Below, one piece after another: positions 25,503 through 31,599 of a DNA stretch of 64,000 nt. The position numbers and the translations under genes are program-made. The DNA is from a virus. Position 1 is the stretch's first letter; each line of letters starts with the position of its first letter. A model generated the notes under the pieces. That model worked only from the letters and a program-made list of their open reading frames with translations, had not been told where the DNA came from and searched no databases. Where the stretch lies: positions 149 through 64,148 of the IMG/VR virus record IMGVR_UViG_2540341061_000001; one strand, 5' to 3'.

Positions 25503-25720
25503 AGAAATGCCTCCTCTCTCAGCTTTCGTATCAGCATCTCACCATCGACGGAGGTGAGAGTTTCGTACCAGTCGGAACGGAAGAACCGCTCCATTTCATT
25601 AACAGCGGCCATCGCGGATCGGCTGTGCGGGTTTTTGCTCAACAGCTTCAACGCTTGCCTGTAATCCTTGACTGCCAGCAGGATGATGGCGTTTGCGAGA
25701 TTTTCATAAGCGTCCGTCAT
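25499..25720 (-). CDS. Conserved phage hypothetical protein
   Basis: YENLANAIIL.AVKDY..FFRSDW motif; coupled to helicase stop. Confidence 0.7.
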   Translation of the reverse strand: MTDAYENLANAIILLAVKDYRQALKLLSKNPHSRSAMAAVNEMERFFRSDWYETLTSVDGEMLIRKLREEAFL

Positions 25721-27092
25721 TTCACTGCCTCCAAATCCGCCTTGACCGCATCGATAAGGCTTTGCTGGGTGACGTCCTTTTGTGACAGCACCTTGAGAAT
25801 CCGCTGGTCTATGGTGTCCTCGGTCACGATGTGCTGAAGCACCACGGTTTTGGATTCCTGCCCCTGTCGCCACAATCGGGCGTTCGTCTGCTGGTAGAGT
25901 TCAAGACTCCATGTGAGTCCGAACCATACGATGGCGCTGCCGCCGGATTGAAGATTCAGTCCGTGTCCGGCAGATGCGGGGTGTATCAGACCCACGGGGA
26001 TCTCGCCGTTATTCCACCTCTTGATACTGTCGGCTTTATCCATTTCGGAAAACGGGATATGGAGACTGTGCAGCCGTTCTTTTATTCGCTCAAGGTCATG
26101 CCGGAACCAGTATGCTACCAGAACAGGCTTTCCGTTCGCCGCCTCAATTAAATCCTCCAGCGCATCCAGCTTTCTGTCGTGGATGTGGGTAACAGAACCG
26201 TCATCGGCGTAGACCGCGCCGTTCGCCATCTGGGACAGCTTGTTTGTAAGGCTTGCGGCGTTGGCGGCCGTTACCTCACCGTCCGGCAAGGCAAGCACCA
26301 GGTCGTCCTTAAGTGCATCGTATCGTTCACGTTCTTTTTCTGAAAGCCGCACCGTGTACTCGCTTGAAATCAGTTGCGGCATACGGATGAAGTCTGTCGC
26401 CTTCATGGAAATGGTCATATCGGATATTTTCTCGTATATACGTTCCTCCGCACCGGGAAGGGGCTTATAGCTGAATACCACCATGCCGTTTCGCTTATCC
26501 GGGGTAAAGTACTCGTTGCGGTAGTGGGTGATGTATCTTCCGAGCCGCTGTCCCATATCCAGCAGACGAAACTCCGCCCATAAATCCATAAGTCCGTTTG
26601 AGGCGGGCGTACCGGTCAGTCCAATAATCCGTTTTACCCTGGGTCTTACAGTCATAAGGCTTTTGAATCTTTTCGCCTGTCCGTTTTTGAAGGAGGAAAG
26701 CTCGTCTATAACCACGGTGTCATAATCAAAGGGGACGCCGCTCTTTTCCACCAGCCACTGGACGTTCTCACGGTTGATAATGTAAATGTCGGCTTTTGTT
26801 TTCAGTGCCGCATGCCGTTCTTCTTCCGTGCCAACCGCCACGCTGATTATGAGATCTTTCAGATGATCCCATTTCTCAACCTCCGCAGGCCATGTATCTC
26901 TCGCGACCCGGAGGGGCGCTATAACCAGCACCCGGTGTGATTCAAAGCTGTCGAACAGAAGATTGATAACCGCCGTCAGCGTAATGACCGTCTTGCTCAG
27001 CCGAGGCCCATATCTAAGAGGACTGCGGCGTTTTTATGCTTTTCGATGTAATCGACTGCATGGCTCTGGTACTCATGTGGTATGAACTTCAT
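25717..27092 (-). pseudogene. SNF2-family helicase split inside motif I by TGA plus a 5-nt offset (pseudogene or recoded)
   Basis: 27092-26997 encodes MKFIPHEYQ...LLDMGLG*; KTVITLT resumes at 26994 in the frame of the ORF with DELS, TGTP, HGLNLQ, NARLWRQGQ. Confidence 0.8.
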
Positions 27093-27369
27093 CCGGCATC
27101 ACCTCCTTCACGATTTTGTCTATATTCGTTGCGGTATCAAGGACATAAACCTTGAAGCCGAGTTTTCTAAGTAACCTGTGTCTTGCCATCTGCAGCGGCC
27201 TCGGCTTTTCTCCCGGAGCTTTCACTTCTACGAAAGCCATTCTGCCGTTCGGAAGGAGCAGCAGTCTGTCCGGCATCCCGTCATAGCCGGGGGACACAAA
27301 CTTGGGGGCAATACCGCCGGCCGCCTTGACCGCATTCACCAGTTTTCGCTCAATCTGTTTTTCTCTCAT
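27073..27369 (-). CDS. VRR-NUC domain nuclease
   Basis: MREKQIE..GMPDRL..FVEVKAPG. Confidence 0.9.
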   Translation of the reverse strand: MREKQIERKLVNAVKAAGGIAPKFVSPGYDGMPDRLLLLPNGRMAFVEVKAPGEKPRPLQMARHRLLRKLGFKVYVLDTATNIDKIVKEVMPDEVHTT

Positions 27370-28022: not shown

Positions 28023-30886
28023 AGAAACTCTTCAGCCTCGGTATCGACGTCAATTTTCAGGCATACGACGCGGGTGTTGACGCCTTGAATCCGCTTCTGA
28101 GTCTGGTTGTTGTTGCCGCCCTCCGAATTGGAAAAGCTCTCGATATACTCTCTGTCATGGAATCCCTTGATGCACTTGGTATAGATGAAACCGGAGTCCT
28201 CCAAAGCCTCGCGCAGAACCGACGCTATAACGAATACATGATGCTTGTCGATTTTGCCGTAACAGGGAGATACAGCCGTATCGAAACGGTTCTTGTTTTC
28301 CGCGACCCATCCCTCAACAAAATGCCATGCTCTATCCACGGAATCTTCCTTTTCCAGCGACTTGCAGTTATGAAGCAGCGTCATACCTAGTTCCAACGCC
28401 TCCGCTATGGCATCCTCGTCGCTCATACTGAAAAGGCACTCGGAGGAATATTTGTCGGCAAGGGTGATAGCGGCTATATTGTCCAGATGCGCGCCGGGGT
28501 CGCCGAGGTCAAGCATTTCAAAGGACTTTTTCAGTTCACTGCGAATCTTGGTGTAGTCGCCGCTTAATTTGCCTTTGACCGGCATTGCCTTTTCAACCAG
28601 ATACCTTACAAACTTCTCTCCGGCAAAGCCATAATTGTCCTCGCTGACCTGGTGGACATACCGCCCGTACTCCATGTCCTCGATAGGCTGACCGTAGACC
28701 TCCAGAACACGGGTGTTTATGCCGTCCATAGAGGTTTCGTTTGTGATGGGCTGCTCCCCGGTAGAGATGATGCTGTTAAGCCAGGTTGGTACTTCCTGCA
28801 GGCCGCCGTTTTTTGAACCTCTGGTCTTGCCGTAACCGTTGCCCAGAGAGTACACGATGGTGGAGGAGGACAGCCGTTTTTCGTTCAGCACCTGCAGCTC
28901 GTCCAGACCAAGCGGCAGATGCTTCAACGTTCCGGCTCTGCGTTCCAGACCGACCGCCGTGGAGTTAAAATTGCCCATGAGTTTCAGCGGATTGCCCCAG
29001 ACGGAAAGAGAGAATTTCAGCATGGCGGTCTTTCCGCTCCCAGATGCGTACCAGAAGTGGATGTTGATGATTCTGTTCTGCAGCGGACTCAACATCGGGG
29101 AAACAAAGGAACCCGCCAGCATGGCTCTCGATACGGCCGACTCCCGCAGCACTTTTGCGGTTTCAAGCCACACCTCGAAATCACCCTTTGCCGTTAGCGC
29201 CGGGAGTATCTCCTCGCCGTCGTCACCGTCAAACACGATCTCGCCCTCTGTGACATAGGGGTAGAACTCTTTTCCTATCCATCCGATTCTGCTCACGCTG
29301 CGGATAAAGGGAATGACGCCGCCGTTCTCGGTTTCATAATCAGTGAAATACCGCACCATGCCCTCAGAGTTGTCAGAGGACACCAGAAGGCCGCTGTCGG
29401 CGTATTTTACGAGGGAGGTTTTATTGAACAGATTTGACCGGGGAGCGCGAAGGGTCTTCCATTTGCCGTTTCGCATGAAGGCGAGTTCCATCATTTCCAT
29501 GCCGCTGTCGATATTCTCAAGCCTTGCGGTGATAACCACGGGCTGATGGCAGAGGCTCACTTTTATTGGAACGCCGTTGATGTAGGATGTGGAGCAAATA
29601 CCTTCTTCAATGCTGATCTGATATCCGGCGGGTTCCACTGCGCCGTTAAGGTCGATGCCGTCAAGGTTGATTTCTGCCTGCATACTGTCAAACTCCGGCT
29701 CTATGGCTTTATCCGCTGTGAACTTGACAGCGTGTTCAAAATCTCGAATCCCCACGCCGGATGTTTTTATGAGCTGCTTGAGCCGGGCGTAGAGGGCGGG
29801 CGCTTTTACTTTCGCGTACCCGGCAAGCCGAAGAGTGCGGTCGTCCAAAGCCTCATCGCCGTCAATCTTCTTTTTTGCCAGCAGTATTTCAAGCTGTTCA
29901 TGGAGAGAAAGCAGCGCATGGACGACGGGAGCCTTTACGCCGCAGCCGCCCGCAGGACAGTCAAAGCAGAGGTTCTCCCGGATATACAGGCAGGTGACCG
30001 GGCGTTTGACCTTTTGTGAGCGCTGAATCTTCCGCTCCGTTTCCTCTTCGGAATAGCCGTCATACAGGGCACTCCACTCGTGGAACAGCTCCGCTCCGTC
30101 CGGGACGAGGGAAATGTTATCGCACATGGCTTTCCATTCCGGCTCAGTCACGCTGTTGGGGTGGTTTTTGAGTTTCTGCACAAAAGCGCAGCGTTCCATG
30201 ATCCTGTTAGCGCTGCCAGTCGTTTCCGGGTCTGCCTCAAACGGTTCTCTGTCTGAGGACGGGGAATTTTCGTAGTACCCTGCAAAGTCCTCAAGGGTGT
30301 ATCGGGGACCGTCAAAAGACAGAACTCCACACGGCACGGGCTCGTCCAGCTTGTGGTTCAGACTGCCGGGGGCGCGAAACATATGTGAGATGTTATACAC
30401 GTTGTCCAGTTTCCAGCCACGCTTTGACGCCTCCGATATCAGCAGCTTTCCGAAGCCCCGGAGCAGACCTTTCGCCCGTTCACGGGTGTCGTCATCCGCA
30501 AGGGACACGGGCTCCTCGAAAAGGTAATAGCCGTATATGCCGTAGCCGGAGTTCACGAAGCCCGTGGGCTTTATTTTCATATCGTCAAGAAAAGCCATTG
30601 CCGAATCCTTGTCCGGCGGCAGTTCGGTTTCCTTGTGGGCGGGACCGTGAACGTCGATATCCGCTACAAAGGCGATGAGGGTTTCCACATCATCGTCCTC
30701 ACCACGGAGGTGCGGCGGCAGGTCGGCTCTTCTCGTATTGGGATTGATATACACATTCCTGCTTTTGCCGATTTCGACCACGCGGTCATAGACCTCGGCC
30801 GCCGGGACGCGGAAGTGCTTTCTGTCCGGCAGAGTCGTTATGATGACCTCATCGCCGAACAGCTTATAAAATTCGCGGTCGTCCAT
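28019..30886 (-). CDS. Primase-helicase (primase domain, Cys cluster, DUF927-like helicase domain)
   Basis: ADIDV..HMFRAPGSLN primase motifs; SGSGKT Walker A; LDELQ Walker B; NGYGKTRG. Confidence 0.85.
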   Translation of the reverse strand: MDDREFYKLFGDEVIITTLPDRKHFRVPAAEVYDRVVEIGKSRNVYINPNTRRADLPPHLRGEDDDVETLIAFVADIDVHGPAHKETELPPDKDSAMAFLDDMKIKPTGFVNSGYGIYGYYLFEEPVSLADDDTRERAKGLLRGFGKLLISEASKRGWKLDNVYNISHMFRAPGSLNHKLDEPVPCGVLSFDGPRYTLEDFAGYYENSPSSDREPFEADPETTGSANRIMERCAFVQKLKNHPNSVTEPEWKAMCDNISLVPDGAELFHEWSALYDGYSEEETERKIQRSQKVKRPVTCLYIRENLCFDCPAGGCGVKAPVVHALLSLHEQLEILLAKKKIDGDEALDDRTLRLAGYAKVKAPALYARLKQLIKTSGVGIRDFEHAVKFTADKAIEPEFDSMQAEINLDGIDLNGAVEPAGYQISIEEGICSTSYINGVPIKVSLCHQPVVITARLENIDSGMEMMELAFMRNGKWKTLRAPRSNLFNKTSLVKYADSGLLVSSDNSEGMVRYFTDYETENGGVIPFIRSVSRIGWIGKEFYPYVTEGEIVFDGDDGEEILPALTAKGDFEVWLETAKVLRESAVSRAMLAGSFVSPMLSPLQNRIINIHFWYASGSGKTAMLKFSLSVWGNPLKLMGNFNSTAVGLERRAGTLKHLPLGLDELQVLNEKRLSSSTIVYSLGNGYGKTRGSKNGGLQEVPTWLNSIISTGEQPITNETSMDGINTRVLEVYGQPIEDMEYGRYVHQVSEDNYGFAGEKFVRYLVEKAMPVKGKLSGDYTKIRSELKKSFEMLDLGDPGAHLDNIAAITLADKYSSECLFSMSDEDAIAEALELGMTLLHNCKSLEKEDSVDRAWHFVEGWVAENKNRFDTAVSPCYGKIDKHHVFVIASVLREALEDSGFIYTKCIKGFHDREYIESFSNSEGGNNNQTQKRIQGVNTRVVCLKIDVDTEAEEFL

Positions 30887-31223
30887 AATTTTTACACCTG
30901 TCTTCCTCGGTTACAAATTTTATGGTCATGTTCTTTTCACTCGCCCTGTCAAACTCCGCCTCCATACCGGAACTGAGGCGGTCGCCGCACACCCAGAATT
31001 CGCCGCATCTGTCCATGAGGGCGTTACCAAAGGACATACCGAGTTTTCGTTCCGCCGGGTCGTTATCGTCCATGAACTGCGGATACAGAAGATGAGGCGC
31101 AACGGGGATGTATCCCTTTTCAACTGCAAGGCGGCAGTATTCTCTCGCAGCCTTTACGTTCGCCGCCACATCCCCGGAGTAGGGACTGCAGATGTACACG
31201 AGGGTTCTTTTGTTATCCGGCAT
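30864..31223 (-). CDS. DUF4406/nucleoside deoxyribosyltransferase-like phage protein
   Basis: VYICSPYSG..PVAPHL..CGEFWV.G..SSGMEAE. Confidence 0.75.
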   Translation of the reverse strand: MPDNKRTLVYICSPYSGDVAANVKAAREYCRLAVEKGYIPVAPHLLYPQFMDDNDPAERKLGMSFGNALMDRCGEFWVCGDRLSSGMEAEFDRASEKNMTIKFVTEEDRCKNYGRPRIL

Positions 31224-31599
31224 GGCGCACCTCCGAAATCCTGTCGAGGAGTTCATCGACAAAAAGCTCATATTCCTCCGGGGCAAGAGCGCGGACGTCC
31301 TCGACCTCGAAATTCTCGCAGAGTCCGTGCAGTTCCATGCCGTAGCCGATATCCTTTAGAACATCGGTCAGACGGATAACGGTATCGATGTTAATATCGC
31401 CTCTGTGCATCATCTTCGCGCTGCATTCGGCACAGTTCACCTCCGTGTCAAAGGGATCTTGTGCTCCGGCGAGAATAAGCTCCCGCAGATCAATCTGGAT
31501 TTCCTTGCCGCATACGGCGCAGCGGGTATAAGTGCTCTTTGCCGTGACGGGACCGAACACGACCGCGCCGTCCTTCAGCTTTGTTTTTGTGTAAATCAT
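31213..31599 (-). CDS. Hypothetical protein with CxxC..CxxC
   Basis: GGAGG RBS; CAVC and CAEC. Confidence 0.65.
   Translation of the reverse strand: MIYTKTKLKDGAVVFGPVTAKSTYTRCAVCGKEIQIDLRELILAGAQDPFDTEVNCAECSAKMMHRGDINIDTVIRLTDVLKDIGYGMELHGLCENFEVEDVRALAPEEYELFVDELLDRISEVRHAG

Follow-up and report, generated by a model that had tools for sequence, protein, structure and literature searches.

Stop codon and five-nucleotide gap within the Walker A motif of a phage SNF2 helicase: a candidate translational stop-hop with counterparts in many diverged relatives

How is an SNF2 helicase made when its reading frame is broken inside the ATP-binding loop? The question is raised by a 64,000-nucleotide (nt) stretch of viral DNA, positions 149 to 64,148 of IMG/VR record IMGVR_UViG_2540341061_000001, which is referred to below as the window. 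The helicase gene lies on the minus strand. Its first open reading frame (ORF1, 27000-27092) begins with ATG at 27092-27090 and runs for 31 codons, M-K-F-I-P-H through L-L-D-M-G-L-G, which span the Q-motif region and the first half of Walker A. The last of these codons, Gly31, is GGC (27002-27000). It is followed directly by TGA (26999-26997), then GC (26996-26995), and then AAG ACG GTC ATT (K-T-V-I) from 26994. AAG (26994-26992) encodes the Walker A lysine and opens ORF2 (25717-26994), which is in a different frame from ORF1 and continues with K-T-V-I-T-L for 425 codons to a stop codon at 25719-25717. Motif I (G-x-G-K-T) is not contiguous in one frame, as G-L-G and K-T are separated by TGAGC (26995-26999). 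Skipping these 5 nt gives DMGLGKT, and a -1 shift gives GLGLSKT. The original prediction, made from the DNA letters alone, had described this layout, both of these products and two otherwise intact halves; all were borne out with the coordinates read on the minus strand.

ORF2 encodes the body of the helicase. Its product matches PF00176 (SNF2-rel_dom) with 52.7 bits (cut-off 24.9) and PF00271 (Helicase_C) with 29.0 bits (cut-off 23.5), and its best match among solved structures is the Sulfolobus SsoRad54-like protein (PDB 1z63, E 1e-14). Like that protein, the phage helicase has SNF2-related and Helicase_C domains, motif II and, after the skip, motif I. It differs in being a small phage form of 456 residues that is paired with a VRR-NUC nuclease in a replication module. 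The downstream piece aligns without gaps, at 75% identity, to an uninterrupted phage helicase in which motif I reads DMGLGKT.

We propose, at a probability of roughly 0.8, that a programmed short bypass, or stop-hop, of peptidyl-tRNA-Gly allows the helicase to be synthesised as a single polypeptide. Ribosomes would start at a very strong ribosome-binding site, an extended Shine-Dalgarno (SD) sequence read at 27098-27106 (minus strand, 9 nt complementary to the 3' end of 16S rRNA, 5 nt before the ATG) within a leader block common to gap carriers, and would translate 31 codons. At that point a pause would set in, with GGC and its peptidyl-tRNA-Gly in the P site and TGA occupying the A site. The tRNA would then unpair, the mRNA would slip forward by 5 nt, and the tRNA would re-pair with AGC (26997-26995) through two of its three bases. 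Decoding would resume at AAG, producing the canonical DMGLGKT P-loop, and ribosomes that do not hop would release a 31-residue peptide. We infer both the hop itself and its efficiency from sequence comparison. In E. coli, ribosomes that stall at a stop codon are known to hop to a codon that fits the anticodon in the P site (PMC6815119, PMC5009743).

The gap in the window is real. Contigs from three independent studies (bioreactor, soil and wastewater) span it with zero indels, in a check that used metagenome contigs, which drop rare variants. At the gap those contigs differ from the window only by a GGC>GGT change in the take-off codon and a C>T change in the final gap base. The same gap is present in two IMG/VR contigs at 95-98% identity. 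The lesion, which could have been unique to this assembly or replaced by GGCAAG in other samples, is neither.

A stop codon and a frame change in a P-loop would normally inactivate a gene, and the helicase could be dead, a pseudogene, excision scar or assembly error in a decaying prophage. Selection on the two ORFs speaks against this explanation. In ORF1, codons 2-26 have a proportion of synonymous differences (pS) of 0.78, which is saturated, and a proportion of nonsynonymous differences (pN) of 0.28, giving a pN/pS of 0.36 (109 carriers, among the matches listed). ORF2 has a pN/pS of 0.34-0.44 at a pS of about 0.8, like ORF1 and similar to uninterrupted relatives. Low pN at saturated pS in both ORFs indicates that translation covers both pieces, each in a frame of its own. 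Judged by these substitution patterns, ORF1 and ORF2 are shown to be under purifying selection, and the gap has outlasted synonymous saturation. The first sample of relatives points the same way: 16/16 carriers have a start codon, exactly 31 codons in ORF1, an ORF2 of 420-426 codons and no further lesion. The remaining replication module of the window is also intact, with a DUF2800 nuclease, an Enc34-type single-stranded DNA-binding protein, a family A polymerase, a DUF927 primase-helicase and VRR-NUC beside the helicase. The marks of a pseudogene, namely a private lesion, further lesions and relaxed selection, are absent from the window gene. With the gap identical in independent samples and its site and form recurring in more than 100 diverged genes, decay is scarcely credible as an explanation, and the scar, sequencing error and plain pseudogene that the original prediction had listed as alternatives are contradicted.

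Lesions do occur in two other carriers. In locus L090, a carrier whose further lesion is what decay would predict, an extra stop follows ORF2 codon 231 near an A-run, and its near-identical twin, L125, is intact; the extra stop is either an assembly error or the mark of a truly decayed copy. In locus L237 codon 9 of ORF1 is TAG, at the conserved Gln of the P-H-x-Y-Q motif, in a carrier that is otherwise intact. This TAG is either a nonsense mutation or a codon that the phage reads as Gln.

The gap recurs in relatives. Among the 83 nearest loci and the window, 16/84 carry an insert that precisely separates the Lys codon of GLGKT from the Gly codon before it. Prophages in species-representative genomes include 15/80 carriers; the closest of these prophages are at most 81% identical and are located in Bacillota and assorted metagenome-assembled genomes. 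Relatives were collected in two ways. Site-blind samples, drawn regardless of the sequence at the site, comprised nearest relatives, loci around two distant carriers and prophages in species-representative genomes. In these, 65/270 non-redundant loci carry inserts of 4-10 nt at the G|K junction, leaving 205 uninterrupted relatives. Pattern scans, whose sets are biased towards the pattern, applied a DNA pattern for the junction to viral contigs (100 helicase carriers among 113 matches listed) and to bacterial genomes (26 helicase carriers among 120 matches listed). The first sample and the two pattern scans together hold at least 111 non-redundant carriers. Recurrence with divergent synonymous sites, which had been put forward as a check on the bypass, was thereby found in more than 100 relatives. 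An interruption of one form at one junction in so many diverged relatives goes far beyond chance. The alignments show a gap that is conserved in kind across many diverged phages.

The gaps follow a small set of rules. In the at least 111 carriers the gap is 5 nt (62), 6 nt (33), 7 nt (8), 8 nt (1), 9 nt (3) or 10 nt (4) long, and gaps of 4 nt were found in further site-blind samples. Every gap opens with TGA, TAG or TAA directly after GGY, so that all three stop codons are used. Among the matches listed, gaps of at least 6 nt have GGN immediately in front of AAR in 47/49 cases and AGC in the other two. For 5-nt gaps the ending varies with the stop: GGN goes with TAG, and AGN, the ending of the window gap, with TGA. 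The gap type of the window (TGAGC or TGAGT) is present in at least 14 helicases, which are 48-75% identical to the window over the first 120 residues. Cultured strains with this gap type include Ihubacter sp. rT4E-8 (NZ_CP187532.1, locus L512) and Gudongella sp. DL1XJH-153 (loci L510 and L516). After the gap, every site-blind carrier has AAR followed by a Thr or Ser codon, AAR-AC(N)/AG(Y), with synonymous variation. The carriers are scattered over the helicase tree, where well-supported branches force at least six changes. A second gap site was found in six loci, after the first Gly of G-L-G-K-T, where GGT is followed by a stop, a GGN ending and then Leu-Gly-Lys-Thr, with both ORFs intact. These loci (L345, L356, L357, L381, L344 and L431, at about 1480-1500 in each) have inserts of 5-8 nt and the same strong SD. 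A stop after GGY together with a GGN ending is the predicted signature of a tRNA-Gly hop and not of one frameshift class. By the same comparison the putative landing rule is loose: a mismatch to the take-off codon is frequent at the third base, and TGA-type 5-nt gaps have one at the first base. The recurrence and the series of gap lengths support the predicted 5-nt bypass with take-off at GGC, a stop in the A site and landing on a 2/3-matched AGC, and a hop of this kind would accommodate all the cases. The second gap site was not part of the original prediction, nor were the conserved leader cassette and the HNH_3 link described below.

Could ribosomes simply shift frame? A -1 (or +2) shift at GGC-TGA would join the ORFs, yielding a helicase with G-L-G-L-S-K-T. 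The idea has merits, since a 5-nt gap is equivalent to a -1 shift and a stop in the A site stimulates slippage in the P site. Relatives with TAG-type 5-nt gaps read G-L-G-L-G-K-T in the -1 frame, which leaves GKT intact, and where Leu is TTG the P-site tRNA could re-pair on GGG. In the window, however, the -1 triplet is CGG, which offers no re-pairing for tRNA-Gly, and there is neither a slippery heptamer at CTC GGC TGA nor a downstream structure. Gaps of 4, 6, 7, 9 and 10 nt would need other shifts or read-through. Because gap lengths range over 4-10 nt, no single frameshift class serves all, and read-through fails where the frame changes. The residue before the lysine is equally informative. 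Gly is invariant at this position in 205/205 uninterrupted relatives, and the window product of a frameshift would lack it. AGN-ending gaps, the window type included, account for 18/111 carriers among the matches listed; in these, frameshifting or read-through would put Ser or Arg in place of Gly before Lys, so only skipping yields GKT. We consider a frameshift very improbable for the window.

The two ORFs might instead be expressed separately, as a 31-residue peptide and an N-truncated helicase, or ORF2 might have an alternative start, with no hop in either case. Several features are compatible with this. Gap sequences are purine-rich and SD-like, some relatives have GTG two codons after Lys, and the ORF listing of the window includes a 404-codon ORF headed by GTG at 26931. 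In 12/72 carriers of 5-nt gaps no stop separates ORF2 from an ATG upstream in its frame, and one such helicase is annotated that way in GenBank. The explanation nevertheless has little chance of being right. A start in the ORF2 frame before Lys was found in 0/52 carriers of 6-nt gaps, and in the window this frame has no ATG, GTG or TTG before the Lys codon. If translation began after Lys-Thr, the Walker A lysine would be lost, but all carriers keep AAR-AC(N)/AG(Y). ORF1, moreover, is conserved as a protein in its own frame.

The gap could also be removed at the level of nucleic acid, by RNA editing or splicing, by transcriptional realignment, or by a reversible DNA indel that acts as a phase switch. 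Carriers and uninterrupted genes do coexist among helicases that are 95-97% identical, and perfect 5-nt tandem duplications could in principle be lost by slippage. The gap of the window, on the other hand, is not a repeat (CTCGG/CTGAG), so slippage would not revert it, and contigs, which drop rare variants, hold no mixed indel. Neither the obligatory stop after the Gly codon nor the Gly-like landing triplet has a role in such models. We know of no system that excises segments of 4-10 nt of heterogeneous sequence. Removal of this kind is regarded as highly doubtful.

Several observations weigh against the stop-hop. First, pairing at the landing site is imperfect. The landing triplet of the window, AGC, matches GGC at two of three bases, and a few relatives (TGAGA, TGAC) match at one landing position only, so re-pairing cannot alone determine the resume point. 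Second, no stimulatory RNA structure was detected. Comparison with shuffles and with uninterrupted relatives in four windows around the gap revealed no take-off hairpin or conserved RNA structure, and alifold on the at least 111 carriers gave an energy of about 0, with no conserved structure. Known stop-hops that lack stimulators have a low efficiency, of about 1% in E. coli. Third, many TAG-type 5-nt gaps are a simple tandem duplication (TTAGG twice), in which the stop and the landing Gly arise automatically and a -1 shift would also give GLGKT. Fourth, the carrier counts take every non-redundant locus as one, irrespective of shared ancestry. Fifth, a link to homing endonucleases, described below, is seen in a minority of carriers, and the window itself lacks it. 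Finally, the case for the hop rests on sequence comparison, and the one run labelled RNA (X12) that was aligned with the window is probably DNA. The sequencing-run search returned mostly DNA contigs, which matched no more than 55% of the sampled words, and six runs recorded as RNA matched small shares. As for structure within the leader, the 93 nt of ORF1 have only a slightly lower folding z-score, and a 5-nt gap is too short for a hairpin. No phage-encoded tRNA was found in the window.

Carriers differ from uninterrupted relatives in more than the gap. In the site-blind samples the first Gly codon is GGC in 65/65 carriers and 44/205 uninterrupted genes, and the take-off codon is GGY in 65/65 and 121/205, respectively. 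Conversely, the Leu codon is CTT in 0/65 carriers and 116/205 uninterrupted genes. A 9-nt extended SD precedes the ATG in 48/65 carriers compared with 8/205 uninterrupted relatives, and the leader M-K-F-I/V(-P-H) is present in 63/65 compared with 31/205. MKFIPH was rejected as a marker exclusive to carriers because of those 31 uninterrupted relatives. Within one cluster of 95-97% identical helicases, the 25 nt that surround and include the gap do not vary among eight carriers, and nine uninterrupted members vary synonymously there. The SD and leader block are the same whichever gene lies upstream.

In the window this block corresponds to 41 nt on the minus strand (27066-27106) that contain the SD, the ATG and the first nine codons, forming the left part of the carrier cassette and conserved among carriers. 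At 27066-27106 contig depth rises 5- to 50-fold in three runs, with loose ends or unrelated sequence on both sides. The 41-nt block is a mosaic junction common to many otherwise unrelated contigs of the same samples. Either the leader and gap travel as a cassette, or the fixed sites are constrained by recoding, or both. The shared M-K-F-I/V-P-H leader may reflect common ancestry of the cassette and not a nascent-peptide signal. It is our conjecture that the very strong initiation site compensates for an inefficient hop, or promotes the hop through ribosome queuing.

Where might such a cassette come from? An HNH_3 gene lies directly upstream of the helicase, ending at its ATG in place of VRR-NUC, in 16/140 carriers (about 11%) but in only 2/145 uninterrupted relatives (Fisher's test on non-redundant loci, p = 4e-4). 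In the site-blind samples the proportions are 4/41 and 2/145 (p = 0.02). One carrier cassette with an HNH_3 gene is that of locus L008, where the gene lies at 936-1427. Comparative analysis suggests that the gap most likely arose within a homing-endonuclease cassette composed of the HNH_3 gene, the helicase leader and the gap. The gap would alter the nuclease target in its most conserved codons and leave the protein unchanged, as in T4 mobA/gene 60. An HNH gene next to the helicase was sought in the window and is absent. There the helicase is preceded by a VRR-NUC nuclease gene (PF08774, 27073-27456, minus strand) that overlaps its start by 20 nt. The only HNH gene of the window (PF01844, 24581-24952, minus strand) lies beside the small terminase gene, its usual packaging partner. 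The chances appear about even that the window is a relic of the cassette, one that kept the leader and gap after the HNH gene was lost.

A broader and more tentative idea, to which we give less than even odds, is that the HNH_3 gene, strong SD, 31-codon leader and stop-hop gap form a mobile unit that writes a ribosome-skipped insert into conserved ATPase codons for immunity to the nuclease. If so, the leader would be a dedicated module that promotes the hop, for example by ribosomes queuing behind a paused ribosome. In that case homing endonucleases would quite generally leave short stop-hops behind in P-loop genes, a footprint that has so far gone unrecognised.

Two further sets of loci touch on the nuclease and on the gap boundary. 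L006 and L011 are the only uninterrupted helicases with HNH_3 directly upstream. They have Cys in place of Met (D/A-C-G-L-G-K-T) and a different leader. The Cys variant may be another way of altering the nuclease target. In L408 (1-1500) and L415 the 5' part of the helicase, up to a remnant of the gap (TAAGGC before Lys), has been replaced by unrelated ThsA-Macro (Thoeris-like) DNA. Recombination that brings in cargo genes thus also uses the edge of the gap as a junction.

Gene callers do not handle these genes well. Helicases with gaps are annotated as truncated, as pseudogenes or in the wrong frame, as in GenBank PV036457.1. In that record (locus L002, 1509-2879, protein XPP58021.1) the annotated helicase follows the downstream frame and begins at an upstream ATG that lies within the SD block, which results in a spurious N-terminus of 30 residues. 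Prophages with such gaps should not be counted as defective. In the replication module of the window, a DUF7768 gene (30864-31286, minus strand) lies between the polymerase and the primase.

For a long time, to our knowledge, programmed bypassing was known from just two sources: T4 gene 60 and its homologues among bacterial viruses, and the mitochondrion of one yeast. If ribosomes hop at the helicase gaps, they provide more than 100 natural variants, with gaps of 4-10 nt, three stop codons, cognate and near-cognate landing sites and two take-off positions, in a protein that can work only if the junction is exact. Simple reporters could then test the rules that govern take-off and landing, the contribution of initiation strength and the link to homing endonucleases. 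In full-text literature searches, no account of gaps in phage SNF2 genes came to light.

Which known systems does the gap resemble? The closest in form are the synthetic stop-hops of E. coli (Weiss et al. 1987), in which peptidyl-tRNA hops over a stop codon to a nearby matching codon (PMC5009743). The 6-nt relatives (GGT TGA GGT) have exactly that design. Those constructs were engineered and of low efficiency, whereas the helicase gaps occur in nature, are conserved and, it appears, have to be crossed to make an essential phage protein. A 2016 review knew of no natural in-frame stop-hop and expected shorter counterparts of bypassing (PMC5009743). A proposed short-distance phage bypass with an SD-like element is likewise short and from a phage, but it involves a rare UUA codon in another gene and is unconfirmed (PMC5009743), and no family-wide series of gap lengths is known for it. 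In the byp elements of Magnusiomyces capitatus mitochondria, many short inserts are skipped and the take-off and landing codons are often only 2/3 matched, as here (PMC5009743). The byp elements differ in being 27-55 nt long, at 81 positions in many genes, with relaxed mitochondrial decoding and an unused sense codon in the A site. The +1 frameshift of prfB, which encodes release factor 2 (RF2), resembles the helicase gap in that a poorly decoded A-site stop provokes slippage of the P-site tRNA. It is a single-base shift onto an overlapping codon, stimulated by an SD 3 nt upstream and autoregulated by RF2, whereas the helicase gaps use three stops and a displacement of 4-10 nt.

The closest parallel in kind is T4 gene 60. 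In both cases a Gly codon, the putative take-off codon of the helicase, is followed immediately by a stop, and the gap lies in highly conserved codons of an essential ATPase of DNA metabolism. The hop proposed for the helicase would also land on a Gly or Gly-like codon, with the next codon read. In the MobA element of T4-like phages the HNH gene moves together with a replacement for the target stretch and with the bypass insert, which protects against further nicking; the bypass persists in some phages from which the nuclease has been lost (bioRxiv 10.1101/2022.08.31.505936). Some of the helicase lineages also have the gap and no nuclease. The differences are as clear as the likenesses. The helicase gaps are 4-10 nt long as opposed to 50, and no take-off hairpin or other conserved structure was found; they lie in the Walker A motif of an SNF2 helicase as opposed to a topoisomerase, and their hosts are mostly Bacillota prophages. 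The helicase of the window is not split into two genes, and where carriers have a nuclease, an HNH_3 gene precedes the entire helicase gene. The putative landing triplet may depart from the take-off codon at the third base, and sometimes at the first. The candidate mechanism is of the gene 60 kind, and in the compared sequences it differs in the gene affected, in a 5-nt gap with no hairpin, in a near-cognate landing site and in the upstream position of the nuclease.

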